This document shows positions 1-14,425 of a DNA stretch of 64,000 nucleotides, one piece after another. How positions within the stretch are numbered: position 1 is the first letter of the stretch; each line of letters opens with the position of its first letter. The stretch lies in assembly GCA_964520425.1 (NCBI GenBank), contig CAZFMX010000004.1:7526-71525 (forward strand), in the 5' to 3' direction. The notes beneath the pieces were generated by a model. It was not told the DNA's origin. It ran no database searches and saw only the letters and a list, made by a program, of their open reading frames with translations. Source of the DNA: an uncultured Desulfobacteraceae bacterium. GTDB lineage: Bacteria; Desulfobacterota; DSM-4660; Desulfatiglandales; HGW-15. The position numbers were made by a program, and so were the translations under genes.

Positions 1-985
1 CTTCCAGGGCGGAAAGATCAGGTGTTTGACCGATGGCCGGAATGACCTGGTCGAGTTCCATATCAAATTCACTCCCAGGTATGGGGACCGGCCTTCTTCT
101 ACCCGACGAGTCGGGCTCCCCAAGTTCCATGCGAATACACCGCAGACCAATCACCCTGTCGTCCTGGAGGAGGACTTCCTGGGGGGCTGAGAGAAAGGAG
201 ATCTTCACCCCTTCCTCCTCTGCGGCCTCGACTTCTTCCTCCCAGGCCGGCATCTCCGCGCGAGTCCTTCGGTAGATGATAGTGACTTCTTCGGCCCCTA
301 GCCGGACTGCGGAGCGGGACGCGTCGATGGCCACATTACCGCCGCCGACGATAGCCACTCTTCTTCCCACAGCCGCCTTACCCTTAAGGTTCAGTTCTCT
401 AAGAAAATCCACACCCTGTCGTACACCCTCAGCCTCATCACCGGGGATACCCATCTCAATCCCTCTATGGGCCCCAGTAGCCAGATATATGGCCTTGTAG
501 CCTTGATTCAATAGGGTTTTGACCGTCAAATTCGGGCCCAGGGGCGTGTCGGTCCTGATCTCCACACCCAGGTTGGTGATGACCTCGATCTCCCGATCCA
601 GAATGTCTCGAGGAAGACGATGCTCAGGGATGCCCACCCGCAGCATGCCGCCGGCTTTGGGCAGGGCCTCAAAAATCGTGGATAAGACCCCTTTCCGTGC
701 TAGATGATAGGCCGCGGAAAGCCCCGCAGGGCCCGAGCCGATGATAGCCACCTTCTCCTCCCTTGGAGGGAGACATTCAATCTCTATTTCCCGGGGATCA
801 AACTGGTCGGCTGCAAGGCGTTTCAGGTCCCGAATGGCTATCGGATCATCCACATCACACCGACGGCAGGCATCTTCACATCCATGGGGACAGATTCTGC
901 CGAGCACACCGGGCAGGGGGAGATCTTGCATAATGATTTTCAGGGCCTCTTTGTATTTCCCCTGTCCCACCATCTGTACATACCC
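1..985. repeat. Copy 1 of a >=985-bp perfectly identical segment shared by the two hdrA paralogs
   Basis: It is identical to 11397-12381, and the first mismatch is at 986 vs 12382. The antisense ORF-track translations 33..275, 276..500 and 519..707 are identical to 11429..11671, 11672..11896 and 11915..12103. Confidence 0.9.
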
Positions 986-1534
986 TTGCACATTCAATCC
1001 CGCGGGGCAGGCTAGACGGCAGGGGGCTTTGTTCACTTTCTGAATGGCAAAGGCCCCCGGAATGGCTTGGGCATATTTTTTATAGGTTGCTTTTCTGGTG
1101 GAAAGACCCTGGTCGTATTCATTGGGGAGTTCTACAGGGCAGACCCTCGCACAGTCGCCACAGGCCGTGCACTTTGCCTCATCAATGTAGCGAGGAATTC
1201 TGCGAAGGGAGACTTTGAAGTTCCCCTGAGCACCACTGACCTTCTCCACGTCAGCACATGTGATCAAATCTATATTCAGATGCCGGCCGACCTCGACCAG
1301 TTTAGGAGAAATGATTCACATAGCACAATCGTTGGTAGGAAAGGTCTTGTCCAGTTCACTCATGACACCGCCGATGGCGGGGGACTTCTCCACAAGTTTG
1401 ACCAGATAACCGGAATTAGCCAGATCCAGAGCAGCCTGCATCCCGGCAATTCCGCCACCGACCACCATCACCGAGCCTGAGGGTGTATCAAGTCTTTCTT
1501 CAGTCATTATGTCTTCCCTTTCCAGTTTGACCAT
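1..1534 (-). CDS. hdrA: HdrA-like FAD/Fe-S oxidoreductase with GltD/NfnB-like insertion, predicted selenocysteine-containing paralog (partial; 3' part lies left of the window)
   Basis: The minus-strand frame is open from ATG 1534 to the window edge except for TGA at 1316-1318. Motifs are [18 protein letters not shown] (FAD fold), [10 protein letters not shown]-[TGA][12 protein letters not shown], [12 protein letters not shown], then GltD-type [10 protein letters not shown]...[14 protein letters not shown] and [13 protein letters not shown]. It is colinear with the 1482-aa protein at 8464..12912. Confidence 0.85.
1316..1318 (-). other. In-frame UGA, predicted selenocysteine codon of the hdrA paralog
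   Basis: It aligns exactly with Cys67 (TGT, 12712-12714) of the paralog in the motif DCAM-C/U-(M/I)ISPK. The frame continues open for 1315 nt downstream. Confidence 0.75.
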
Positions 1535-1639
1535 TTGGTAGACTCACAAAGCGTTTGATCCGCTCCACACTTGATTTGTCATGCAAACCGCATACGCCGT
1601 GCAACGCGGAAACGGCAAGGAGCCTGATTTGTTATAAGG

Positions 1640-2518
1640 CTATGACAGGTTGGCCTCGTTCAGAATTTGAGGAAGCCTGTCTTCCCAGCCTACGGTTGAG
1701 ATCAGTACGCCGGCCATCCCCATCTCCTTTAGCTGGGTTATGATCTTTGCAGCAATAGTTATGCATTCCTGAACTTTATCAGGGGCCTTTTGAATACTTG
1801 TGATTATCTCAGAGGGAATGGAGGTCCCCTTTATGTTTCGATCAATGTATCGTGCCATTCCGGCGGATTTTAACAGGAGAACGGTAGGAATGATCGCCAC
1901 TTGGGTTGTGTCCACTCTCTTAACAAATTGTTGGAAACGACGGGTGTCAAACACTGGGTTTGTTATGATATATTCTACCCCGAGATCTATCTTCTTTTTG
2001 AGGTTATCCAACTCGATTTCCAGAAGACCTCCCGGGGTGCCGGTGTCTATGGTAGAACCCACAAAATAGGTGGGTGATCCTTTCAACTCAATGCCAGCCA
2101 GATCTTTTCCCATCTGAAGTTTCTGAAGGGTTTCGAGGAGACCCATAACGTCCAAGTCATTAACAGCTCTGGCTTGAGGATGATCCCCGAAATTGATGTC
2201 CTCCCCTGCCGTGACCACGACATTCTTAATGCCCAGTGCTGATGCGGACAGGAGGTCGGCCTGAAGGGCTAGACGATTCCTATCCCGACAACAGACCTGA
2301 AAAACCGTTTCGACTCCTGCTTCTTGCAGCACGGCGCACCCTCCCAAAGAACTCGCCTTCAGGACGGCATTCCCCATTTCAGGGACTATGAGTGCATCTA
2401 TGCGACCTTTTACTTGATTGGCACTCCTAAGAAAAGGCGAGAAGTCGATTCCTTTTGGCGGCTCAAATTCACCAAGGACAACGAAATTCCCCGATTTTAT
2501 CTTTTCCTGTAACGGCAT
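1640..2518 (-). CDS. metF: Methylenetetrahydrofolate reductase family protein (second MetF-like paralog)
   Basis: The 292-aa product is a TIM-barrel MTHFR-like sequence (QVCCRDRNRLALQADLLSASALGIKNVVVTAGE) and a paralog of 6315..7247. It sits 105 nt upstream of the Sec-hdrA start. Confidence 0.7.
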   Translation of the reverse strand: MPLQEKIKSGNFVVLGEFEPPKGIDFSPFLRSANQVKGRIDALIVPEMGNAVLKASSLGGCAVLQEAGVETVFQVCCRDRNRLALQADLLSASALGIKNVVVTAGEDINFGDHPQARAVNDLDVMGLLETLQKLQMGKDLAGIELKGSPTYFVGSTIDTGTPGGLLEIELDNLKKKIDLGVEYIITNPVFDTRRFQQFVKRVDTTQVAIIPTVLLLKSAGMARYIDRNIKGTSIPSEIITSIQKAPDKVQECITIAAKIITQLKEMGMAGVLISTVGWEDRLPQILNEANLS

Positions 2519-2723
2519 ATGCTTGACCTCCAGTCCCCTTTGACCCCATCTTCCGTATTTGGCTCGAACTGATCGGTCCGGGACGAATAATTTGAAAAAA
2601 CGATATGAACTTAAGAATCTAGACTCAACAGACGGTTAAGCAGTTTGTTCTTATGGTCAGGGTGTTCCCCAGAGAGTAGGGGATGTAGGCTTTTACTACA
2701 ATAATTCCTATTTGGCAATCCCT

Positions 2724-4211
2724 TTAGGGGCTTTTCCCATCTTCCCTTATAACCGGTAGCAATATTCTAAAAGTAGTTCCTTTATCAGGAACGCTTTCCA
2801 CGTCAATCGTACCATTATGACTTTCTACCACACCTTTTACTATGGTGAGTCCCAATCCTGTACCTGTCACATTACGAGTCTTTTTGTTTTTTATACGGTA
2901 AAACTTGTCAAAGATCTTAGGGAGTTCTTCCGGGTCAATGCCTACTCCCGTGTCACTTACTTTGATTTCCATATATTCCCCCAGGACCTGGGCATTCACT
3001 TCGACCCGACCCCCTTCAGGAGAATAATTGATGGCATTGGTGACAAGGTTATTGAGGATCTCTTCAATTCCTTTGGGATCCGCATGAACGGGCTTCATGT
3101 TCTTGCAGGAGTCAATAAGGGTAATTCCCTGCTTCTGGGCCCTGGGCTTCAACAGAGAGAGGGTATCCTTGATGAGTGATTCGATATCCGTAGGCACTCG
3201 ATGTTGTACCTGTTTTCCCTCTTCAAGCTTCGCGATGTCCAAAAGATCATTGATCAGCTCAAGGAGTTGGTCTATTTTCTTTACTCCCTTTCCTAGGAAT
3301 TCCTCCTGCTTTTCCCCAAGAGGACCGAGTAACCCCTCTAGAAGGACAGTGTTTTGTTGCCTGATGGAAATCAATGGACTTCGGAGTTCGTGGGCTACCA
3401 TATTTATAAAATCTGATTTCATCTCGTCGAGTTGTCTAAAGGCGGTGATATCCTGCAAGACCGTGACTGTCCCGACGAGCCCATCATCGGGGCCGAGGGC
3501 TGGTGCCGAAATGGCCCTCAGGACCATTTTCCCGGCGCTGATTTCCTGGGACACGAACTCATCTCTTGCAGATTCACCGGTCTGGATACCCTCAAGTGTA
3601 TTTCTCAGAGCCCTGTCATCTATAATCTGATTCACTAATACGGGATTTTCGACCTTTCCCGATATCTCCAGCAGCCTCATCAATGCGGGATTGTGAAGGA
3701 CAACTTCCAGGTTGCGGTTAGTGACCATTACACCATCAGCCATACAGTTGATTATGGTCTTCAGCCGGCTTTTTTCCAGGTCGAGATCATAGAGGTTTCT
3801 CAATTTCTCCTCTTCATATGAGTGGGCTCTCTTTTCAAGCGCCCTCTTTTCGGCAGCCCGATTGATGGTTAAGAGAAACTGATCGATCTGGAAAGGCTTG
3901 GTTATAAAGTCATAAGCGCCCTGCTTCATACAATCCACGGCGGTATCCACGGTTCCATGTCCCGTGATAATGATGACCGGGATGTCCGGATATTGAACGC
4001 GCGTTTTTTCCAGGACCTCCTCGCCACTCATGACAGGCATTTTCAGGTCGAGCAGGATAACATCTACGGTCTCTTTGTTCAGCAGATCCACAGCCTTTTG
4101 TCCGTTTTCAGCGGTCAAGACCTCATATCCCTTTCCCGTTAACACACGGCTGCATCCCTCCCTAACAACCTGCTCGTCATCTACAACCAATATCTTTGTT
4201 TTATGATCCAT
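2724..4211 (-). CDS. Hybrid response-regulator receiver / PAS / histidine kinase
   Basis: It has an N-terminal receiver (ILVVDDEQVVRE...LLDLKMP), an H-box MVAHELRSPL, and HATPase_c boxes (NAINYSPEGG, DTGVGI, GTGLGLTIVKG). Confidence 0.85.
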   Translation of the reverse strand: MDHKTKILVVDDEQVVREGCSRVLTGKGYEVLTAENGQKAVDLLNKETVDVILLDLKMPVMSGEEVLEKTRVQYPDIPVIIITGHGTVDTAVDCMKQGAYDFITKPFQIDQFLLTINRAAEKRALEKRAHSYEEEKLRNLYDLDLEKSRLKTIINCMADGVMVTNRNLEVVLHNPALMRLLEISGKVENPVLVNQIIDDRALRNTLEGIQTGESARDEFVSQEISAGKMVLRAISAPALGPDDGLVGTVTVLQDITAFRQLDEMKSDFINMVAHELRSPLISIRQQNTVLLEGLLGPLGEKQEEFLGKGVKKIDQLLELINDLLDIAKLEEGKQVQHRVPTDIESLIKDTLSLLKPRAQKQGITLIDSCKNMKPVHADPKGIEEILNNLVTNAINYSPEGGRVEVNAQVLGEYMEIKVSDTGVGIDPEELPKIFDKFYRIKNKKTRNVTGTGLGLTIVKGVVESHNGTIDVESVPDKGTTFRILLPVIREDGKSP

Positions 4212-4253
4212 GATGAATGATAGCCCTTCTCCGAATTAACCGCTCGTGCTCAA

Positions 4254-5825
4254 TCAATTATCCAATCCGACAAAAAGAGGTTCTTCCGAGGTCCTCGCCA
4301 CAAATCCCAGGGGGATCTCGATAACGAAGGTGGTCCCTCCCTCAGGAGGAGAGTCTATGGCAATGCTGCCACCGTGCAGAGAAATAATGTTCTTGGTAAT
4401 CGTCAATCCCAGACCTGTTCCCTTTCCAGGGGCCTTGGTAGTAAAGAAAAAATCAAAGATCTTTTCCCGCATGTTCTCCGGGATACCTGGACCGGTATCA
4501 GAAACGCGGATATGGAACTGATTCTTTTCAGGTTCAAACCGCGCTTTGATATCCAGACGGCCGTTACCTTCCATGGCGTCTGCGGCATTCATGAAGAGAT
4601 TGGTAAAGACCTGCTGGAGCTGGGCCATGTCACCCACCATGCTGGGCAGGTCCGAATCTATTTGTTTGGTGATGGATATATTTTGAAAAAGGGCCTGATT
4701 GACCAAGAGAACCAGTGTCTTGTCAATCAATTCAGCTAAACTGAAAGAGGATATTTTGCCCACGGACTGCCTGCTAAACTCCAGTAGATCGGATACAATC
4801 CTTTTACATCTTAATGTCTGTTGAATGATTTCGTTTGCGTCATTGAAGTATTGGGGATTATCCTTCAAATTCTCCTTGAGCAGTTCGGCGAAGATCAGGA
4901 TGCCGGACAGAGGGTTATTGATTTCATGAGCGACACCGGCGGCCATTCTGCCTATAGATGCGATTCTCTCTGATTCCACCAGTTGGAGGTGGGCATCCTC
5001 CAGGTCTTTTCTCATCTGGAGAACTTCCCTCATATCCCTAAAGACCCCGACACTGGCTGTCTCCTTGCCGTCAATAGTGATGATAGAGGCGGATAAGGTG
5101 ACCGGAATTTTCTCACCTTCCTTTGTGGTGATCGTCATGTTGGTAGGATTTAATTTCCCTGGAGGCCCGTGCCGGTCACTGCGCATCTTCTGCATGTTTT
5201 CTTTTGCCACATCTATGTCATAGAAGCTGCTTAAATGACCCATATCCGTCATCTCCCGGGCCGAGTATCCTGTCAGTGCTTCCATCCCTTGATTCCAGAT
5301 CAGGACGTTTCCTTTGGTATCAGAGACAACAATGCCGTCCACAGTACTCTGGATCATATTTTGAAAAAAGGTGTTGGATTTTCGGGCTTCTTGTTCCAGC
5401 ATAAATCTTTCCGTCACATCCCTGGATGCTTCAAGAATCTGGACCAATTCACCCTCTTTGTTACAGATGGGGGCAATGGTGACTACGTCATAACGGATTT
5501 CGCCGCTATCATCGAGATATTCGTTGTAGACACTGATGGACCTATTCTCTTTGATCTCGTCAAGGCGCTGCCTTATGTTACAGACTCGGCCAAGTTCATC
5601 ACATGGTTGGTTGAACCCATACCTCACCAAGTAACAAGGTTTGCCCCGGACATCATCATAGCTTAGGCCGAGTTCATTCAGAAAGGGTTGATTCACGGTG
5701 TCAATGGTCATATCCGTGTTGACAACCATGATTCTGTAAGGAATAGAATCTAGGATAAGTTGTGTATGGTTCTTGTCTTTTTCTCGGGAATCCGTTCCCT
5801 CTTTTCCTAATTCCATCTTTTCCAT
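4254..5825 (-). CDS. PAS-domain sensor histidine kinase
   Basis: It has PAS-like repeats, an H-box GVAHEINNPL, an N-box NLFMNAADAM, and G-boxes DTGPGI and GTGLGLTITK. Confidence 0.85.
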   Translation of the reverse strand: MEKMELGKEGTDSREKDKNHTQLILDSIPYRIMVVNTDMTIDTVNQPFLNELGLSYDDVRGKPCYLVRYGFNQPCDELGRVCNIRQRLDEIKENRSISVYNEYLDDSGEIRYDVVTIAPICNKEGELVQILEASRDVTERFMLEQEARKSNTFFQNMIQSTVDGIVVSDTKGNVLIWNQGMEALTGYSAREMTDMGHLSSFYDIDVAKENMQKMRSDRHGPPGKLNPTNMTITTKEGEKIPVTLSASIITIDGKETASVGVFRDMREVLQMRKDLEDAHLQLVESERIASIGRMAAGVAHEINNPLSGILIFAELLKENLKDNPQYFNDANEIIQQTLRCKRIVSDLLEFSRQSVGKISSFSLAELIDKTLVLLVNQALFQNISITKQIDSDLPSMVGDMAQLQQVFTNLFMNAADAMEGNGRLDIKARFEPEKNQFHIRVSDTGPGIPENMREKIFDFFFTTKAPGKGTGLGLTITKNIISLHGGSIAIDSPPEGGTTFVIEIPLGFVARTSEEPLFVGLDN

Positions 5826-5949
5826 CTGGGTTGTAACCGTTCAGCGGCTAAGCCACGAGGAGGACGTGTCGACAAATAGCCAAGGAACCTCGATTCACTA
5901 ACGGCTCGCGATGTTGAAGCTTCCTGCAGGTCTCTCTAATTCCGCCGCC

Positions 5950-6240
5950 TCACGATGTTTCACTATCCAACCGCAATATAAGTTTCTGTTCGAGATCCTT
6001 GATAATGTCCTTTAAACTAGGAGTCTCCTGGATAGGCCCTGAATTGTTCCATCCCTTGATCAGGGCCTCCTCTTTCTTTTTTCTGAATACTTCAATGTTG
6101 GAAGCCATGGTCTTCCACAGGAACAACTTCTGAAGGATATGCCGCTCCGGAGCAGTCAAATCGATCTCCGTATCATATGTTTTTCCGTCTTTGGTGGTAA
6201 TGATCACAGTGAAAAAGCAATAAAGAATCAAGTGTGACAA
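5950..6240 (-). CDS. Hypothetical small protein
   Basis: This is a 96-aa ORF with no recognisable motif. It lies downstream of a terminator-like hairpin after metF, so expression is uncertain. Confidence 0.3.
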   Translation of the reverse strand: MSHLILYCFFTVIITTKDGKTYDTEIDLTAPERHILQKLFLWKTMASNIEVFRKKKEEALIKGWNNSGPIQETPSLKDIIKDLEQKLILRLDSETS

Positions 6241-6285
6241 TAAGTTGGTGCAATATCTTAAGGGACAAGTGCTGTAGAACTCAAG

Positions 6286-6305
6286 AAAAAAGCCTTCTCA
6301 GAAGG
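6286..6305 (-). terminator. Putative intrinsic terminator after metF
   Basis: On the minus strand a CCUUC-UGA-GAAGG hairpin is followed by C and six U residues, about 10 nt after the metF stop. The stem is short (5 bp). Confidence 0.4.
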
Positions 6306-6314
6306 ATGGCGTCA

Positions 6315-7247
6315 TCAAACCTTGGGTCTTGGAAGGAGACCGGCTCTCTCTGCGATCTCCGGGACTTTGTGTTCCCATTCGATGGCCATGAGATGAACAC
6401 CGGCTACACCTTCCATCTCTTTAAATTCTTCAATCTGCTCGAGTGCGAATTTGATGCCCTCTTCAGCTACTTTCCCTTTTCCCGCTCCTCTCAGTCTATT
6501 GATCAGAGATTCGGGCACATCCATGCCGGGGACCGCTTTGGCCATATACTGGGCCATACCAAGGCTTTTCATGGGGGTGACTCCGGCCAAGATATAGCAC
6601 TTCTCATGAAGACCCATATCGACCACCTTTTTCATAAAATCCCTAAAGATATCCATATTGTAAATGCATTGGGTCTGAACGAAATCCGCCCCTGAGGCGA
6701 TCTTCTTTGCGAGTCGGTGAACCCGGAATTCAATGGGATCTGCAAATGGGTTGGAGGCAGCCCCTATAAAGAGCCTGGGCGAGACATCAAGCTGCTCCTC
6801 ATTCAGGAATTTGCCCTCATCCCGCATCTTTTTGGCTAGGGAGATAAGTTGCATGGAGTCTAAGTCAAAGACGTTCTTGGCCTGGGGGTGGTTCCCAAAA
6901 CGCTGGTGATCGCCGGAAAGACAGAGCATGTTTCGGATGCCTAAAGTATAGGCGCCCAGGATATCACTCTGCATGGCCAAACGGTTCCGATCACGGCAGA
7001 CCATTTGATAATTGGGCTCAATTCCTTCTTGTATCAATATCGTGGAAGCGGCCCAGCTGGACATTCTAACCACCGCTGTCTGGTTATCGGTGATATTGAC
7101 CGCATCTACCATCCCTTTCAGGTGGGCAGCCTTTTCCTTGAGATGGTCCGTATTCGCGCCCTTTGGGGGACCACATTCGCCGGTAAAGGTAAAGTGCCCG
7201 GCTTTGAGGACCTTTTCAAGATTGCTTCCAGATTTCAGATCGTTCAT
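6315..7247 (-). CDS. metF: Methylenetetrahydrofolate reductase, acetogen-type MetF
   Basis: The 310-aa product has MTHFR motifs (MVCRDRNRLAMQSDILGAYTLGIRNMLCLSGD). Its start overlaps the metV stop by 4 nt, and it is the last gene of the hdrCBA-mvhD-metVF string. Confidence 0.85.
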   Translation of the reverse strand: MNDLKSGSNLEKVLKAGHFTFTGECGPPKGANTDHLKEKAAHLKGMVDAVNITDNQTAVVRMSSWAASTILIQEGIEPNYQMVCRDRNRLAMQSDILGAYTLGIRNMLCLSGDHQRFGNHPQAKNVFDLDSMQLISLAKKMRDEGKFLNEEQLDVSPRLFIGAASNPFADPIEFRVHRLAKKIASGADFVQTQCIYNMDIFRDFMKKVVDMGLHEKCYILAGVTPMKSLGMAQYMAKAVPGMDVPESLINRLRGAGKGKVAEEGIKFALEQIEEFKEMEGVAGVHLMAIEWEHKVPEIAERAGLLPRPKV

Positions 7248-7912
7248 TCTACCAGTCCCTCCTTAGCACTCTTTCGGGGCCCGCCGTCCCTTGAGGTCTG
7301 CCAATCCTTGGCTGGTGTTATTCGGAGTAGATCCTCCAGACGGCCCTGTTCCATTTTCTTTCTCACGATCATGTCCCAGACACAGTCAACTTCCCTTGAG
7401 ATCTCACACTTTCCCTTGGCCGAACCGCCACAAGGCCCGTTGAGGAGGTTTTTAGAACAACGAGCAACGGGGCATAGACCGCCGGTCAGGTGGAGGATGC
7501 AGTCTCCGCACATAAGACAGCGCTCAGTAAACAAACCCGGTCCCTCAACTACACCGATGAAAGTGGTGTTGAGTCCGGGCAGAATGATCTTCTCCGGCCA
7601 TTTCTCGGAGGTGAACTGGACCCCGGCCCCGCAGGCGATGGAGAGAACGGCGTCGGCCCACTCGATCTGTTCTTTCGCGGAATCGAAGAATTCGTGTTCG
7701 CACTGCCGCTCGATTCCCCCATTCTTGATGTCGATCTCTATACCTTCCTGTTTGGCCTTCATCCTCAACATGGAGGCCAAGATCTCTGCTTCCTTATTCC
7801 CCCCCTCGTGGCAAATGGCCACGCAGGTGTTGCATCCGAAGATCAAGACCTTCCTGTATTCTTTGATCATGTCCCAGATGACTTCGAAGGATTTTTGTTT
7901 CCCGACAATCAT
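7244..7912 (-). CDS. metV: MetV (Cys-rich MTHFR small subunit, MTHFR C-terminal-like domain)
   Basis: It carries the Cys clusters CNTCVAICHEGG and CLMCGDCILHLTGGLCPVARCSKNLLNGPCGG. It sits between mvhD and metF. Confidence 0.8.
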   Translation of the reverse strand: MIVGKQKSFEVIWDMIKEYRKVLIFGCNTCVAICHEGGNKEAEILASMLRMKAKQEGIEIDIKNGGIERQCEHEFFDSAKEQIEWADAVLSIACGAGVQFTSEKWPEKIILPGLNTTFIGVVEGPGLFTERCLMCGDCILHLTGGLCPVARCSKNLLNGPCGGSAKGKCEISREVDCVWDMIVRKKMEQGRLEDLLRITPAKDWQTSRDGGPRKSAKEGLVE

Positions 7913-7918
7913 CTTAAT

Positions 7919-8443
7919 CTACTCCTTTCCGGAGTACTTGGATTCCGTTCCAGAATATCTGGATTCCGCAAGCCGAATGGGGGAGGGACCGAGCTTTTTG
8001 ATCTTCTCTGTAAACTCGGTACAGATTTCCGCCCATCTGGGTCCCATGGCTGCGGAAAGGTTATACATCTCAAGCCGTTCCGGATCAATATCAACCTTAA
8101 TTAATAGATTCTTTAGATACTCAATCCTCTTTCTGGCGTTTGTATTTCCTTCCAGGAAATGACACTGTCCGGGCAGTCACCCGGCAGCAAATACGCCGTC
8201 CATGCCTTTCTCGAACGCGCGAAGAACATAGATGTGGTCCAGCTTGCCTGTGCAAGGGAGCCTGATGATCTTTACGTTTGTAGGATAGGAGAGCCGCATG
8301 ACCCCAGAGAGGTCTGCGGCCGCGAAAGCGCAATAGTGGCAGGCAAAGGCCAGGATGTTGGGCGACCAGTCCGAAGGGATGTCGTGCGGTTTCTCTACGG
8401 AGGAGGTATCCTCCTGTGCCACGGTTGAAGCTTCTTCTGTCAT
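7919..8443 (-). CDS. mvhD: MvhD-like [2Fe-2S] protein, predicted selenocysteine-containing (174 aa with read-through)
   Basis: The ORF-track stub 8177..8443 ends ...DGVFAAG-TGA. The same frame continues LPGQCHFLEGNTNARKRIEYLKNLL...FTEKIKKLGP to TAG 7919-7921, matching the MvhD signature GC(U)xxGxCH(Y/F)xxGN. Confidence 0.8.
8144..8160 (-). promoter_or_regulatory. Candidate bacterial SECIS hairpin for mvhD
   Basis: On the mRNA a 6-bp stem AUUUCC/GGAAAU with loop UGGAA starts 16 nt after the UGA. It was found by eye only. Confidence 0.4.
8177..8179 (-). other. In-frame UGA, predicted selenocysteine codon of mvhD
   Basis: It sits where MvhD/VhuD family proteins have the first Cys of the G-C-x-x-G-x-C-H motif. 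Confidence 0.75.
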
Positions 8444-8463
8444 GTTCTCTCTATCTTTCCTCC

Positions 8464-11400
8464 CTACATGCTCGTTCCTTCGGCCAGTGTATCTATCATG
8501 GCCAATATTTGCCCGTCTTTGAAGTTATTGACCTGAAATGCCTTGGCCGGACAGACACCCGCACAGATTCCACATCCCATGCATTTGACCTCGTTGTGGC
8601 TTACCTTGCCCTCTTCGTCGATATAGGGTGAATCAAAGGGACAAACTCTGAAGCATGTGAGACAGGACATGCAGATATCCCGGTTGTGCTTGGAAATAAT
8701 CCCGGATACGGCCAGTTTGTCCTGAGACAGGATGACACCGGCGCGACCGGCAGCGGCTAGGGCCTGGGAAATAGTTTCATCCAGATTCTTGGGGGCATGG
8801 GCCAGTCCGCACAGGAAGATACCCTCGGACGGAAAGTCTACGGGACGAAGTTTGACGTGGGCCTCCAGCAGGTAGCCCTCCGGATTGCGCGTCAGTTTGT
8901 AAATCTTGGCGACCTCTTCTGTCGTTGGGTGCGGTCTGAGGCCCGTGGAAAGCACCAGCCAGTCCGCTTCAAACTCGACTTCTCGGCCGAGCATATCATC
9001 GAAGGTCTTGACCCGAAGATTGTCTTCTGAAACCTCCACCTGAGGTTTCCTTTCCGGGATATAGTTTACAAAGATCACGCCCAAATCGCGCGCCTTAAAG
9101 TAGTAGTCTTCCCTGAGCCCGTATGTCCTGATGTCACGATAGAGGATGATGACCTGTGTATCAGGCGAGTGTTCTTTGATGGCGATAGCGTTCTTTATAG
9201 CGTCCTGACAGCAAATACGGGAGCAGTAATTATCAGGCTCCTCTCTGGAACCCACACACTGGATCATGACATATTTTTCGCCCGCTTGAACGCCATGATT
9301 GGCTGCAAGCCTCTTCTCCAGCATTCGCTGGGTGATCACCCTGTCGTTCTCCCCGTAAAGGTATTCCTTGGACTCATATTCGGTACCGCCAATGGCCACG
9401 ATAATAGCCCCATGCTCGAACGATGTTCCGTCAGTCAGGGTTGTCTTGAAGTTGCCCACAAAACCATCAGTGGATTTGACCTCAAGCCCCGTGTGAATGG
9501 TGATGCGCGGGTGGGCCTGGATCTCTTCGATTTTGGTCTTTAAAAAACCCTGCACATCGCTTTTATCCAGTGTATGAAAAAGATTGCGAGCCAGACCGCC
9601 CAGGTCAATCTCCTTTTCCACCAGGTGGACATCAAAACCCTGATCACCCAGTGAAAGGGCCGCGGTGATGCCGGCTACTCCGCCGCCAATGACCATGGCC
9701 CCGGGAATCACGCCCACCGAGTCGGTGGTGACCGGCTCCAGCAGCCTGACCTTGGCTATATTCATTTTAACAATGCTGATGGCCTTTTCTGTGGCATCTT
9801 CATTCTGTCCCATGTGACACCAGGAGCATTGCTCGCGGATATCGGCAAGCTCGAACAAATACTTGTTCAGTCCGGCTTCACGGATAGTGTCCTGGAACAG
9901 GGGCTCGTGGGTTCTTGGTGTGCAAGAAGCCACCAAGACCCTGTTCAAATTTTTCTCCTTGACGATCTCCTTTATTCGCTCTTGTGTGTTCTGTGCGCAG
10001 GCGTACATTGTATTTTCAGCATGTATAACGCCCTGTTCACCTTTCACAGATTCGACCACCTTTTCCACATCTACGGTCTGGCTGATATTGATTCCGCAGT
10101 GACAGACGAATACCCCGATTCTGGGCTCTTCTTTGGTGATGTCTGTTTCCGGCGGGAGTTCTCTGGTCACCGTCTCTGTGCCCCTGGCCTCACCCAGCAA
10201 AGCCATAGCCTCTCCCGCTACAGCGCTTCCCTGCATCACGGTCTCGGGTATGTCCTTGGGGGATTGGAATATACCCGTGACAAACACACCATCTTGAGAG
10301 GTATTAACCGGCTGAAATTGGGTTGTTCTGGGAAAGCGGTGGTCATTGAGCGCAATATCAAAGGTCTTGGCCAAATCATCCACGTCCGAGTGGGGCTGAA
10401 AGCCGATGGAGAGGACGACCATGTCAAAGGTTTCGTCCACCAGGGTTCCATCCTCTTTAGCATAGCGCAGCACCAGGTTACCTGTTCCGGGTTCTTCCCT
10501 TATTGCCGAGATCATGGCCCGTTGATACCGGACGCTGTAGTCGTTCTTGGCACGATCCACATACTTGTCAAAGTCCTTTCCAAAGGCTCTCAGCTCCATA
10601 AAGAAAATGGTGGGATGAATTCGGCTATCATGTTCGGTGGCAATAATGGCCTGCTTGGTGGCATACATACAACAGACCGAAGAACACCAGGGATTGGCAT
10701 TGTGTCGGTCCCGGGATCCTACACATTGAATCCACGCGATTTTTTCAGGATGCTTTCCGTCGCTGGGGCGCTTGACCGTTCCCTGGTACGGGCCGGACGC
10801 GGAAAGGATGCGCTCAAACTGAATGGACGACACCACGTTGGGCCAACGGCCAAACCCCAGTTCCTGTCGGACGCCGGCGTCATAGCGGGCGAGACCTGGG
10901 GACAGAATAATGGACCCCACATTGATTTCCATGGTCTCGGGTTGCTGCGCGTGGGTCTCCAGTGTTACCGCTCCAGGAAGACAGGCCTCCACGCACTGAA
11001 AACACTCGCAGCAATATGAACAATTCAAACACCGATGGGCCTCTGTCTGACCGGTCTCTATATCCAGACCCAGCTCCACTTCCTTGAAGTTTCCTTCTCG
11101 CTTTTCAACAGGCAACTCCGGCATTTTGGCTCGATCCTTCTTGTGTTGGCCTTTTGGAATAGGACGGTAGACCGGATCCTCTTTGGTGATGGGTTCCCGT
11201 CCCTCGGCCATGTCCCGTCCGTCCAAATAACGGACAATGGATTCGGCTGCCTCCCGGCCTGAGGCAACGGCACCAATGGCCACCCATGGACCGGTCTGCA
11301 CATCTCCACCCGCAAAAACACCGTCGCAGTTGGTGGCATAGGTGATGGAATCCGTTTCAACCGTACCCCACCGAGAGAATTCCAGACCGGATATCTCTTC

Positions 11401-12912
11401 CAGGGCGGAAAGATCAGGTGTTTGACCGATGGCCGGAATGACCTGGTCGAGTTCCATATCAAATTCACTCCCAGGTATGGGGACCGGCCTTCTTCTACCC
11501 GACGAGTCGGGCTCCCCAAGTTCCATGCGAATACACCGCAGACCAATCACCCTGTCGTCCTGGAGGAGGACTTCCTGGGGGGCTGAGAGAAAGGAGATCT
11601 TCACCCCTTCCTCCTCTGCGGCCTCGACTTCTTCCTCCCAGGCCGGCATCTCCGCGCGAGTCCTTCGGTAGATGATAGTGACTTCTTCGGCCCCTAGCCG
11701 GACTGCGGAGCGGGACGCGTCGATGGCCACATTACCGCCGCCGACGATAGCCACTCTTCTTCCCACAGCCGCCTTACCCTTAAGGTTCAGTTCTCTAAGA
11801 AAATCCACACCCTGTCGTACACCCTCAGCCTCATCACCGGGGATACCCATCTCAATCCCTCTATGGGCCCCAGTAGCCAGATATATGGCCTTGTAGCCTT
11901 GATTCAATAGGGTTTTGACCGTCAAATTCGGGCCCAGGGGCGTGTCGGTCCTGATCTCCACACCCAGGTTGGTGATGACCTCGATCTCCCGATCCAGAAT
12001 GTCTCGAGGAAGACGATGCTCAGGGATGCCCACCCGCAGCATGCCGCCGGCTTTGGGCAGGGCCTCAAAAATCGTGGATAAGACCCCTTTCCGTGCTAGA
12101 TGATAGGCCGCGGAAAGCCCCGCAGGGCCCGAGCCGATGATAGCCACCTTCTCCTCCCTTGGAGGGAGACATTCAATCTCTATTTCCCGGGGATCAAACT
12201 GGTCGGCTGCAAGGCGTTTCAGGTCCCGAATGGCTATCGGATCATCCACATCACACCGACGGCAGGCATCTTCACATCCATGGGGACAGATTCTGCCGAG
12301 CACACCGGGCAGGGGGAGATCTTGCATAATGATTTTCAGGGCCTCTTTGTATTTCCCCTGTCCCACCATCTGTACATACCCCTGTACATTCAATCCCGCG
12401 GGGCAGGCCAAACGGCAGGGGGCTTTGTCCATCTTTCGGATGGCATAGGCGCTCGGAATGGCTTGGGCATATTCTTTGTAGGTTGCTCTTCTGGTGGAAA
12501 GACCTTGCTCGTATTCATTGGGGAGTTCTACAGGGCAGACCCTCGCACAATCGCCACAGGCCGTACACTTTGCCTCATCAATGTAACGAGGATTCTTGCG
12601 GATGGTGACTCTGAAATTCCCTTTGGGACCCTCAACCTTCTCCACTTCTGCGCAGGTGATCAGGTCTATATTGAGATGCCGGCCGACCTCCACCATCTTG
12701 GGTGAGATCATACACATGGCACAGTCGCCAGTGGGAAAGGTCTTATCCAACATGGCCATGGTCCCGCCTATGCTTGAATCTTTCTGGACTATATGTACCT
12801 TGAAGCCGGCTTCAGCAAGGTCGAACGCGGACTGCATGCCACCCACACCGCCGCCTACGATCAGGACCGATCCTTTTACTCTATTACCATTTGAGGAGGC
12901 ACTATCACTCAT
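8464..12912 (-). CDS. hdrA: Giant HdrA-like flavoprotein: HdrA module + inserted GltD/NfnB-like NAD(P)H module + second HdrA module + ferredoxin domains (1482 aa)
   Basis: Motifs in order are VLIVGGGVGGMQ; DCAMCMISPKM; GltD-type [22 protein letters not shown]; [13 protein letters not shown] and [15 protein letters not shown]; CVGSRD...CSSVCCMYATKQA; a second MVIGGGVAGITAAL and CVGSREEPDNYCSRICCQDA; and the C-terminal CMSCLTCFRVCP/CMGCGICAGVCP. Confidence 0.9.
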   Translation of the reverse strand: MSDSASSNGNRVKGSVLIVGGGVGGMQSAFDLAEAGFKVHIVQKDSSIGGTMAMLDKTFPTGDCAMCMISPKMVEVGRHLNIDLITCAEVEKVEGPKGNFRVTIRKNPRYIDEAKCTACGDCARVCPVELPNEYEQGLSTRRATYKEYAQAIPSAYAIRKMDKAPCRLACPAGLNVQGYVQMVGQGKYKEALKIIMQDLPLPGVLGRICPHGCEDACRRCDVDDPIAIRDLKRLAADQFDPREIEIECLPPREEKVAIIGSGPAGLSAAYHLARKGVLSTIFEALPKAGGMLRVGIPEHRLPRDILDREIEVITNLGVEIRTDTPLGPNLTVKTLLNQGYKAIYLATGAHRGIEMGIPGDEAEGVRQGVDFLRELNLKGKAAVGRRVAIVGGGNVAIDASRSAVRLGAEEVTIIYRRTRAEMPAWEEEVEAAEEEGVKISFLSAPQEVLLQDDRVIGLRCIRMELGEPDSSGRRRPVPIPGSEFDMELDQVIPAIGQTPDLSALEEISGLEFSRWGTVETDSITYATNCDGVFAGGDVQTGPWVAIGAVASGREAAESIVRYLDGRDMAEGREPITKEDPVYRPIPKGQHKKDRAKMPELPVEKREGNFKEVELGLDIETGQTEAHRCLNCSYCCECFQCVEACLPGAVTLETHAQQPETMEINVGSIILSPGLARYDAGVRQELGFGRWPNVVSSIQFERILSASGPYQGTVKRPSDGKHPEKIAWIQCVGSRDRHNANPWCSSVCCMYATKQAIIATEHDSRIHPTIFFMELRAFGKDFDKYVDRAKNDYSVRYQRAMISAIREEPGTGNLVLRYAKEDGTLVDETFDMVVLSIGFQPHSDVDDLAKTFDIALNDHRFPRTTQFQPVNTSQDGVFVTGIFQSPKDIPETVMQGSAVAGEAMALLGEARGTETVTRELPPETDITKEEPRIGVFVCHCGINISQTVDVEKVVESVKGEQGVIHAENTMYACAQNTQERIKEIVKEKNLNRVLVASCTPRTHEPLFQDTIREAGLNKYLFELADIREQCSWCHMGQNEDATEKAISIVKMNIAKVRLLEPVTTDSVGVIPGAMVIGGGVAGITAALSLGDQGFDVHLVEKEIDLGGLARNLFHTLDKSDVQGFLKTKIEEIQAHPRITIHTGLEVKSTDGFVGNFKTTLTDGTSFEHGAIIVAIGGTEYESKEYLYGENDRVITQRMLEKRLAANHGVQAGEKYVMIQCVGSREEPDNYCSRICCQDAIKNAIAIKEHSPDTQVIILYRDIRTYGLREDYYFKARDLGVIFVNYIPERKPQVEVSEDNLRVKTFDDMLGREVEFEADWLVLSTGLRPHPTTEEVAKIYKLTRNPEGYLLEAHVKLRPVDFPSEGIFLCGLAHAPKNLDETISQALAAAGRAGVILSQDKLAVSGIISKHNRDICMSCLTCFRVCPFDSPYIDEEGKVSHNEVKCMGCGICAGVCPAKAFQVNNFKDGQILAMIDTLAEGTSM
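11397..12381. repeat. Copy 2 of the >=985-bp perfectly identical segment (inside hdrA, GltD-like insertion)
   Basis: See 1..985. It covers about aa 178-506 of the 1482-aa protein. Confidence 0.9.
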
Positions 12913-13784
12913 ATCAAGTTCAACTCCTTCAAGAGGCCGATTGCATCCACAAAATGCCTGTCGATTTGCAGCTCTTCAGGGGATTTGTCCATGGCCACTC
13001 CAATAAGCTCGGTAATGAAGTAGACAGGCATGCTCTGGCCAATGTCATATTTTTGCTTCATCTGTTCCTGGTATGCATCGAGGTTGAGCTGGCACATTGG
13101 GCAGGTAGTGACAAAACAGTTGGCTCCTCTCGCAATGGCGTCCTTAAAAATCTTCGACATGAGCAGGAGCGCGGTATCGGTGTCGTTAACGGTCGCGGAT
13201 GCCCCACAGCAGTCGGTTTTGTAGCTCCAGTCCAAGGGCTTGGCACCGAGGGTTTTGAGAACGATCTCCATCCCCTGTGGATTTTCTACATCGTCGGGCA
13301 CGGGCACATCATATGGGAACCTGGTTTGAAGACATCCGTAGTAACATGCGGGTTCCAGACCCTCGAGTTGCTTGACCGCCTTTTCGGCAAGTTCGCCGGA
13401 CTCGGCCTTCGGTATCAATACCTCAAGAATACTCATAATCCTAATGTTGCTCTTTACTTTTTTGGACAACTCCGCGTTGATTTCGTCCCTTAGTCTATTG
13501 TTAGACGCAAGTCTGTGTTGTGCGACCAGCATCCGGCTATAGCAGGCCGAGCAGGGGATCACCAACTCAGAGAGCCCACAGTCGTCCGCAATACCCAGGT
13601 TGCGTGCGGGCATGGCAACCGACAGGAAGTCGTCGGTCTTGCTGGCAGATGTGGCACCACAGCAATTCCAGTCTTCGAGCTCGTTCAGGTTGATTCCCAT
13701 CTCCCCTAGCACCAACTTGGTCTGTGTGTCATAGAGCTGACTCGATGCGTGTAATGTGCATCCAGGGTAATAGGCAATTTCCAT
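12909..13784 (-). CDS. hdrB: Heterodisulfide reductase subunit B-like (CCG-domain protein)
   Basis: It has two CCG-type motifs (WNCCGATSA; DCCGASATV...CPMCQLNLD). Its stop overlaps the hdrA start by 4 nt. Confidence 0.85.
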   Translation of the reverse strand: MEIAYYPGCTLHASSQLYDTQTKLVLGEMGINLNELEDWNCCGATSASKTDDFLSVAMPARNLGIADDCGLSELVIPCSACYSRMLVAQHRLASNNRLRDEINAELSKKVKSNIRIMSILEVLIPKAESGELAEKAVKQLEGLEPACYYGCLQTRFPYDVPVPDDVENPQGMEIVLKTLGAKPLDWSYKTDCCGASATVNDTDTALLLMSKIFKDAIARGANCFVTTCPMCQLNLDAYQEQMKQKYDIGQSMPVYFITELIGVAMDKSPEELQIDRHFVDAIGLLKELNLI

Positions 13785-14425
13785 TATGTCCCCCTGCTCA
13801 TGTCAGACTCTGTCAGCGGCCCGTTTTTTTTTGCCTTCTTGAGAAGGCGTTTGAGATCTGAAAGGTGTTTGATCTTTTGGATCCCGAAGTGCATGCGTTT
13901 TTTCTTGGTCATACGCAGGCCGAGTTTCGCCTGGAGCATGGTCTCTTTGTATATCTCTTTGAACTTGAAGCGCATGAGGTTGCGGAAGGTGTCCTTCATT
14001 TCATAGAGGCCCATAAATTCGATTTCATTGAGCCTTCCCAAGTGGTTGGCCGCGGTACAGAAGGATTTATGGAAGGCTGCGACTTTTGGAAGGAGTGGAT
14101 CCAGATGCTCCTCTTTGGACATATGTTTGAGGGTCTCGGTGATCTTTGCGGTTTGTATTTCGTTTGGGCAGCGGGTGCCGCATGTATAGCACGACACACA
14201 CTTCCAGACCAGCTTGTTACTGAGGGCCTGTTCCCGGTCGCCGAGCAGTATCATTCGAATCAAACGATCAGGCGTGACATAGCCGGTCTCTTCTCCCACA
14301 GGACATCCTGCAGCACATCGTCGGCACTGATAACAGGCGGTAATGTTCTGCTCTGACCGCGCCATTACCTCATGCACCAGTGCTTGCTTGCTTTCGTGTT
14401 CAAATTTTAAGGCAGGAAGTGCCAT
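13784..14425 (-). CDS. hdrC: Heterodisulfide reductase subunit C-like (2x[4Fe-4S])
   Basis: It has the motifs CYQCRRCAAGCP and CVSCYTCGTRCP. It overlaps the hdrB start by 1 nt. Confidence 0.85.
   Translation of the reverse strand: MALPALKFEHESKQALVHEVMARSEQNITACYQCRRCAAGCPVGEETGYVTPDRLIRMILLGDREQALSNKLVWKCVSCYTCGTRCPNEIQTAKITETLKHMSKEEHLDPLLPKVAAFHKSFCTAANHLGRLNEIEFMGLYEMKDTFRNLMRFKFKEIYKETMLQAKLGLRMTKKKRMHFGIQKIKHLSDLKRLLKKAKKNGPLTESDMSRGT

Follow-up and report, generated by a model that had tools for sequence, protein, structure and literature searches.

The locus described here raises the question of whether a TGA triplet close to one end of a long DNA stretch ends a short gene or is read as selenocysteine (Sec) within a much larger one. 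The stretch, called the window throughout, comprises 64,000 nucleotides (nt) of contig CAZFMX010000004.1 (assembly GCA_964520425.1, positions 7,526 to 71,525 of the forward strand) from an uncultured Desulfobacteraceae bacterium, and the gene in question is hdrL. Translation of the minus-strand frame from ATG 1534 gave a single in-frame stop, the TGA at 1316-1318, after which the frame stayed open for 438 codons up to the window edge, as the initial annotation of this DNA had described. This apparent stop is very probably a Sec codon in a large HdrA-type flavoprotein gene. We put the probability at roughly 0.9 that window 1-1507 (or 1-1534 with the alternative start), minus strand, is the 5' third of an intact Sec-containing hdrL gene from a Desulfobacterales-like host. 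The initial annotation had preferred Sec insertion over truncation, and this preference is supported by an invariant cysteine (Cys) at the UGA column, a bacterial selenocysteine insertion sequence (SECIS; bSECIS for the bacterial form), more than 190 TGA-containing homologues with the hairpin, purifying selection on the codons that follow the UGA and another Sec gene elsewhere in this DNA. The features of the Sec gene are as follows.

1-1507, minus strand: Sec-type hdrL, 5' third (about 500 of about 1,490 codons), from translation, Pfam, a PDB match and orthologue N-termini.
1316-1318, minus strand: UGA very probably read as selenocysteine, aligned with an invariant Cys and kept as TGA in relatives.
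1283-1300, minus strand: bacterial SECIS, CUGGUCG-AGGU-CGGCCGG, from its fold, its conservation and the bSECIS model.

To define the encoded protein, Cys was put in place of the stop and the 502 visible amino acids (aa) of the read-through product were compared with Pfam, which returned FAD_oxidored, Fer4, Fer4_20 (residues 152-237) and Pyr_redox_2, the pyridine-nucleotide-disulfide oxidoreductase family (residues 252-499). The visible N-terminus begins with the Rossmann start of a flavin adenine dinucleotide (FAD)-binding domain followed by a 4Fe-4S ferredoxin motif (inserted ferredoxin Cys motifs). Residues 13-167 matched HdrA in solved Hdr-Mvh complexes, for example residues 146-300 of 5odc_A (E 1e-52). 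Two marks of HdrL are present, a thioredoxin-reductase-like FAD domain of the HdrA type carrying the [C/U] motif and an inserted GltD-like module; a second HdrA unit and a C-terminal ferredoxin domain, expected for an HdrL of about 1,480-1,500 aa, would lie left of the window. As predicted from these domains the protein has the HdrL architecture, in which a flavin/iron-sulfur protein of the HdrA type carries a GltD/NfnB-like NAD(P)H insertion. Orthologues of 1,478-1,505 aa (L124, L126, L129 and L150) were colinear with it. The N-termini of the orthologues matched the second ATG (1507, MTEERL...) and not ATG 1534, so the stub upstream of the TGA is probably 63 aa and not 72 aa long. By this comparison the true start is probably ATG 1507, and ATG 1534 is an alternative that would lie 9 codons too far upstream. 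ATG 1507 has GGAAAGGGAAG in front of it (minus strand, 1505-1534).

The residue encoded by the UGA was assessed by alignment. In 27 Cys homologues the UGA column is an invariant Cys within the motif TNDC[AS]MC[IVM]x[SA]PK, and the UGA position maps to Cys197 of the methanogen HdrA 5odc_A. In the solved HdrA complex, Cys197 ligates the [4Fe-4S] cluster at the N-terminus of the partner subunit, and in fused double HdrAs, such as that of Moorella thermoacetica, Cys197 and the N-terminal domain are lost in a complementary manner (PMC9012536). The second HdrA unit of a 1482-aa protein encoded nearby in the window fits this complementary pattern. By homology, the Sec in unit 1 of HdrL would ligate the [4Fe-4S] cluster held by unit 2. 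The alignment also bears on the view taken in the public annotation, which gives a 72-aa gene plus a downstream open reading frame (ORF), that is, a 63-72-aa stub truly ending at the TGA and a separately initiated downstream protein. Such a split would interrupt the FAD-binding domain within the TNDCxMC-ISPK motif, which runs unbroken through all Cys homologues and the solved HdrA structures, and the hairpin conservation at wobble positions described below would have no role. We consider two separate genes very improbable.

Sec insertion in bacteria depends on a hairpin in the coding region, and the initial annotation had reported no convincing SECIS within about 40 nt of the UGA. This turned out to be incorrect. 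Folding of the minus strand after the UGA, as had been suggested, yielded a hairpin at 1283-1300, which is +19 to +36 counted from the U of the UGA, with a fold energy of -10.2 kcal/mol (z -2.7; 2 of 200 shuffled sequences folded as well). It consists of a 7-bp stem and a 4-nt loop, AGGU, in which positions 2 and 3 are both G, and the loop begins 22 nt after the UGA. In the published bSECIS model the stem has 4-16 bp, the loop has 3-9 nt with a G followed by G/U close to its start, and the loop lies 16-37 nt from the UGA (PMC13188914); the hdrL hairpin agrees with the model in all of these. Among distinct TGA-containing homologues the 18-nt hairpin was identical in 167 of 191. Its wobble positions (+21, +24, +27, +30, +33 and +36) carried 1.6-2.0 bits, as compared to 0.06-1.0 bits outside the hairpin. 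Rare variants stayed paired (C-G to U-A in L195, U.G to U-A in L012) and a minor class, YUGGUKGAGUGCGGUCGG, pairs through G-U. Seven Cys homologues encode the same peptide, LVEVGRH, and six of them use other codons (e.g. CTC GTG GAG GTG GGG CGC). The wobble-position conservation of the hairpin is confined to Sec forms. The initial annotation had instead pointed to a hairpin farther downstream, GCUGAC-N9-GUCAGU at 1235-1255 (+64 to +84). This hairpin does exist in the window, but its six pairs were present in only 2 of 200 homologues, and we rejected it as part of the insertion element and regard it as an unconserved, local coincidence.

Like the E. coli fdhF SECIS and the bSECIS consensus, the hdrL element is a coding-region stem-loop after the UGA with a small loop carrying G then G/U. 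It differs from the fdhF element in having an unrelated sequence and no bulged U, and SelB binding here is a prediction. By our own count, its loop lies 4 nt farther from the UGA than the loop of fdhF. Following the established bacterial pathway, the mRNA hairpin would bind SelB-GTP-Sec-tRNA(Sec) and the ribosome would then insert Sec at UGA 1316-1318 rather than terminating.

To assess how widely the in-frame TGA is kept, one genome per species was scanned for the pattern TFPTNDCxM followed by TGA. At least 119 genome loci matched, and by our own estimate fewer than 0.1 would be expected by chance. Among the matches listed, nearly all run in frame for about 945-970 or about 1,415-1,422 codons further. 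The listed matches are mostly from Desulfobacterota with a few in other phyla such as Bacillota, and they include the cultured Desulfoluna spongiiphila, Desulfospira joergensenii, Desulfogranum marinum, Desulfopila sp. IMCC35008 and Desulfosarcina variabilis. Metagenomes were searched with the 438 aa following the UGA. The best 80 metagenome relatives (75-88% identical) all carried TGA at the hdrL codon (80/80) and ran for 1,413-1,423 further codons where the contig allowed. The initial annotation had proposed an alignment with Sec-containing HdrA sequences as a check; more than 190 distinct homologues carry the TGA at the same codon. Codon differences after the UGA were counted in three relatives at increasing distance from the window and were mainly synonymous, with synonymous to non-synonymous counts of 39/13 in L001, 120/54 in L123 and 183/79 in L126. 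Judged by these counts, the codons downstream of the hdrL UGA are under purifying selection, hence translated.

These data were weighed against a decaying pseudogene, in which a nonsense mutation would have struck the Cys codon. Such an event has some appeal, as the TGA is one substitution from TGT or TGC, the 3' part of hdrL lies beyond the window and a functional Cys-type gene sits 7 kb away. It would have to accommodate the same TGA in more than 190 distinct homologues from several phyla, 438 open codons beyond it, downstream differences that are mainly synonymous and hairpin wobble positions that are invariant solely in the TGA forms. A pseudogene is strongly disfavoured and in our estimate highly unlikely.

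The whole window was also scanned for other TGAs of this kind, taking every TGA flanked on each side by 50 or more open codons and asking for protein-family support. Only two such TGAs lay in family-supported frames, hdrL 1316-1318 and mvhD 8177-8179, and both replace Cys. Chance is excluded as the explanation of the in-frame TGA. The second gene and its hairpin are as follows.

7919-8443, minus strand: mvhD (FlpD family) with UGA at 8177-8179, from the sequence GVFAAG*LPGQCHFLEGN and the FlpD profile.
8144-8160, minus strand: mvhD SECIS, AUUUCC-UGGAA-GGAAAU, from its fold and homologue comparison.

Read through the UGA, the mvhD product covers positions 1-123 of the 123 in the FlpD profile with 159.8 bits, as compared to positions 1-59 and 77.9 bits for the 88-aa stub. 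The mvhD hairpin lies at +20 to +36 and its UGA-to-loop spacing is 22 nt, the same as in hdrL. The arms AUUACC...GGUAAU were present in 57 of 61 distinct Sec-MvhD homologues. The window hairpin carries a compensatory A-U to U-A change, unique among the 61, which changes Tyr to Phe on one arm and is a silent Gly change on the other. The hairpin was lacking in all of 10 Cys-MvhD genes. The mvhD UGA and hairpin are independent of hdrL and give indirect support that this organism decodes Sec. The order in the window is a Cys-type Hdr gene followed by a Sec-type MvhD. Seven other loci (L062, L066, L070, L075, L076, L100 and L110) have a Sec-type HdrL followed by a Cys-type MvhD (GCMEGDCHY). As both combinations occur, the Sec and Cys states of the two partners mix freely.

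The same scan bears on a genome-wide reassignment of UGA to Trp or Gly (codes 4 and 25) with no Sec at all. About 22 of 54 long ORFs in the window end at TGA, including family-supported genes with full-length profile matches. In hdrB, a fructose-bisphosphatase gene, an exopolysaccharide transferase gene and others TGA is a normal stop with full profile coverage, and just the two TGAs noted above stand in frame within conserved domains, both at Cys. Reassignment is refuted by stop-codon usage in the window, and the probability left to it is close to nil.

Several results weigh against Sec insertion at this codon. About 2.9 kb of hdrL, its 3' two-thirds, lies left of the window and beyond the sequence read. 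Within the 64-kb window, Pfam and NCBIfam gave no match to selA, selB or selD when run over essentially all long ORFs, and ARAGORN found no tRNA or tRNA-Sec there. Rfam gave no SECIS or other relevant family, either at the gathering threshold over the whole window or at E<=10 over 1200-1400. Rfam holds only described, curated families and we therefore count this last result as neutral. A search of the literature for the hairpin sequence as text also gave no match. Finally, a contig from the same strain (L003) ends at 1343, short of the TGA at 1316-1318. As L003 does not cover the TGA, its A rests on the source contig and two strains of about 94% identity, not on reads.

This last point is what speaks for a sequencing or assembly error at the A of the TGA, with TGT or TGC as the true codon. 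Two contigs from other samples (L001 and L002; a JGI metagenome and a Logan assembly), at 93-95% DNA identity to the window, carry the same TGA, and the 72-aa peptide upstream of it is identical in both. The SECIS is also complete here and degraded in the Cys genes examined. An error in this base has, in our view, only a slim chance of being the explanation.

Other sequences related to the hairpin were encountered during these surveys. A bacterial-type UGA with the hairpin was also present on contigs binned as Woesearchaeota, Nitrospinaceae, Acidobacteriota and Terriglobia (L006, CAZPUY010000050.1; L066; L103; L122), either by horizontal transfer of the gene with its SECIS or by binning contamination; the archaeal assignment of the Woesearchaeota-binned contig looks suspect. 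The Cys-type homologue L208 (2593; GCA_002779265.1) retains CTGGTCGAGGTCGGCCGA, one base off the Sec hairpin, and may have undergone a recent Sec-to-Cys conversion that left a remnant SECIS. In L185 (about 7974-8010) four bases of the SECIS 3' arm are gone (GAGGTCGGCATTTAA), the frame shifts and a stop follows after 11 codons, which is either a pseudogene or an assembly error. A distinct, shorter Sec-HdrA-like class with about 454 codons after the UGA was found at L146 (5571), L153 (13043), L156 (5680) and L180 (11616). Its post-UGA sequence is different (AUGCUGGAUGUCGGUCGACAU) and the common hairpin is not formed.

The initial annotation had compared the Sec gene with the 1482-aa ORF at 8464-12912, and we examined this neighbour by alignment and region-wise identity. 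The features concerned are as follows.

8464-12912, minus strand: Cys-type, probably recombinant HdrA/HdrL gene, 1482 aa, in an hdrC-hdrB-hdrA-mvhD-metV-metF operon, from alignments.
1-985, no strand assigned: exact repeat, copy A, 100% identical to 11397-12381, with the first mismatch at 986.
10926-12667, minus strand: HdrL-derived segment in the Cys gene, holding repeat copy B (11397-12381), from the L209 alignment and region-wise identities.

The two products are colinear by alignment, as had been proposed, and most of that colinearity is an exact repeat, since window 1-985 equals 11397-12381 exactly. The TGA does align with the Cys67 codon of the 1482-aa gene (TGT, 12712-12714), and the one-nucleotide difference that had been noted between them is correct as an alignment. 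The paralog is probably a recombinant with a native Cys. Residues 67-655 of the Cys protein were 74-93% identical to Sec-HdrL orthologues, as compared to 42-58% over residues 1-66 and 656-1482. For the second of these two stretches, residues 656-1482, HdrA proteins of about 1007-1028 aa without the GltD-like module were the best homologues (70-87% identity). An orthologous, unrecombined operon was present in L209, with hdrC (213 aa), hdrB (291 aa), hdrA (1013 aa) and an mvhD stub (88 aa). L209 aligned gap-free to window 15852-12668 (89.5%) and 10925-7923 (84.8%), and between these blocks 1,742 nt of the window (10926-12667) replace 335 nt of L209. The 5' junction lies inside SECIS-homologous sequence, where ATGGTGGAGGT matches L209 and CGGCCGGCATCT matches the Sec gene. 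This position explains a half-hairpin in the Cys gene at 12679-12696, minus strand (2 mismatches, -4.6 kcal/mol). The half-hairpin was considered as a remnant SECIS of a Sec-to-Cys conversion and rejected, as L209 shares both the Cys codon and the 5' arm, which leaves only the 3' arm as a match to the Sec gene. L209 also has TGT at the Cys67 position, and by this comparison the codon is native to the lineage of HdrA proteins of about 1010 aa. The one-nucleotide difference therefore says nothing on Sec-to-Cys or Cys-to-Sec change and fails as a clue to either.

The HdrL-derived sequence at 12382-12667 is about 10-25% diverged from the Sec gene and the sequence at 11397-12381 is identical to it, which suggests an older capture followed by a recent gene conversion. 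The exact identity of the repeat probably extends to about 10926 (about 1,456 nt), reaching left of the window, because L003 ends at 10954. At third positions the L001 Sec copy was 84.8% identical to the window inside the tract and 92.7-94.4% outside it; the tract thus has its own history. This lower identity of L001 was considered as a sign of the conversion donor and set aside, and the exchange may have run in either direction. L003 is a Logan contig from SRR14802572 that matches window 1343-10954 with 100% identity and spans the 3' junction at about 10925. We think that the chimera is real and not a mis-assembly, because a mis-assembly would need a five-piece mosaic and because L003, from a second assembler, spans the 3' junction. 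Taken as a whole, the history that we lean towards is that a Cys double HdrA of about 1010 aa captured 1.74 kb of the adjacent Sec-type hdrL (residues 83-662, with the whole NAD(P)H-binding GltD-like module) through a 5' crossover in the SECIS-homologous hairpin, and that a later conversion left about 1.0-1.46 kb identical. If this is true, the constraint that a SECIS places on the nucleotide sequence can create a hotspot for recombination between Sec and Cys paralogues. Gene conversion would then also have given a bifurcating HdrA complex its NAD(P)H entry module, with the Sec/Cys codon and the intact SECIS left just beyond the exchanged tract. This probably recombinant neighbour is the only part of the locus that exceeds the published work that we found.

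The surrounding genes were identified by Pfam.

1640-2518, minus strand: metF-like gene (MTHFR family), directly upstream of hdrL, from Pfam MTHFR.
6315-7247, minus strand: metF, from Pfam MTHFR and DUF5981 (with metV).
7244-7912, minus strand: metV, from Pfam MTHFR and DUF5981 (with metF).
12909-13784, minus strand: hdrB, from Pfam CCG and Fer4 dicluster (with hdrC).
13784-14425, minus strand: hdrC, from Pfam CCG and Fer4 dicluster (with hdrB).

The genes fall into two minus-strand modules. Module 1 (6315-14425) holds hdrC, hdrB, the 1482-aa Cys gene, mvhD(Sec), metV and metF, and module 2 begins with the metF-like gene (1640-2518) followed by the Sec hdrL. The complete set of metF/metV, hdrA, hdrB, hdrC and mvhD is therefore at the Cys operon, and near the Sec gene only the metF-like gene is visible. 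Pairing of the metF-like gene with hdrL is conserved in L123, L126, L129, L150, L162 and others. In relatives the order is metV-metF, sensor kinases, metF-like, hdrL(Sec), mvhD, metV and metF, with the Sec hdrL module adding mvhD-metV-metF and no hdrBC. From this synteny the rest of hdrL, then mvhD-metV-metF, is expected left of the window. Because relatives keep the metF-like - hdrL - mvhD - metV - metF module, HdrL is most likely a partner of methylene-tetrahydrofolate reductase. Its domain content and synteny together suggest that it would act as the NAD(P)H-linked, flavin-based electron-bifurcating partner of this enzyme in the Wood-Ljungdahl pathway. Between the two modules, at 2724-5825 on the minus strand, lie two sensor histidine kinase genes, one a hybrid with a receiver domain and one rich in PAS domains. 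The placement of kinases is conserved in relatives (L129, L150, L162 and L186), which have three kinase genes.

The Sec gene was compared with known systems. The name HdrL was introduced for proteins of Desulfobacterium autotrophicum HRM2, in which mvhD follows every hdrL gene and HdrL1 and HdrL3 are reported to be selenoproteins (PMC2702500). Like the window gene, HRM2 HdrL1 and HdrL3 are large fusions of HdrA and a glutamate-synthase-like part with an NADH-binding module and Sec, and the HRM2 genome also has non-Sec paralogues and Sec-containing mvhD genes (PMC2702500). The likeness is by description, and it is a different organism; the window has metF-like and metVF genes where HRM2 has dsr genes, and the nearest loci to the window are from a Desulfobacterales metagenome-assembled genome and a Desulfosarcina sp. 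HdrA as an established selenoprotein family, a premise of the initial annotation, is well documented (PMC1794560, PMC2702500), and few selenoprotein families are as common in bacteria as HdrA and FrhD/MvhD (PMC1794560). Sec-HdrA and FrhD/MvhD of Deltaproteobacteria, Clostridia and methanogens belong to the same families as the window proteins, and in bacteria their genes are likewise often neighbours with the bSECIS directly after the UGA (PMC1794560; PMC13188914). The published operons have the order hdrA-frhD-frhG-frhA with hydrogenase genes, whereas the window locus is without hydrogenase genes and its HdrA has a GltD-like insertion. The neighbouring Cys operon, hdrC-hdrB-hdrA-mvhD-metV-metF, corresponds directly to the genes for the MetFV-HdrABC-MvhD complex described from Moorella thermoacetica (PMC9012536). 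Unlike that complex, the Sec hdrL belongs to a second module with a metF-like gene in front and no adjacent hdrBC. As with Vhu and Vhc of Methanococcus voltae (cited in PMC2702500), Sec and Cys isoforms occur in one genome. The MvhD partner of the Cys gene is still a Sec form, however, and the pair is therefore unlike a clean selenium-free backup.

Sec-HdrA, Sec-MvhD and Sec-HdrL were already described in 2006-2009, and the Sec gene itself brings no new biology. The Sec-HdrL reported here is an ordinary member of a long-known selenoprotein family that gene callers routinely truncate, and the main practical value of the Sec finding is annotation correction. Each stub, the one of 72 aa and the mvhD stub of 88 aa, should be joined to the frame that follows it to give a full-length selenoprotein; otherwise a central redox enzyme of C1 metabolism would be counted as absent or defective. 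Neither the almost invariant 18-nt hdrA hairpin nor the MvhD hairpin has an Rfam match, and either is usable as a covariance model or a simple pattern, which could rescue hundreds of genes that are now mis-called in Desulfobacterota and other anaerobes.

A large exopolysaccharide locus with XrtA/PEP-CTERM-associated genes (about 29700-59700) takes up the right half of the window and has no relation to the Sec finding. Its genes include those for a priming glycosyltransferase, a chain-length determinant/tyrosine kinase, an export protein and an associated ATPase, together with WecB and TagA-like genes.

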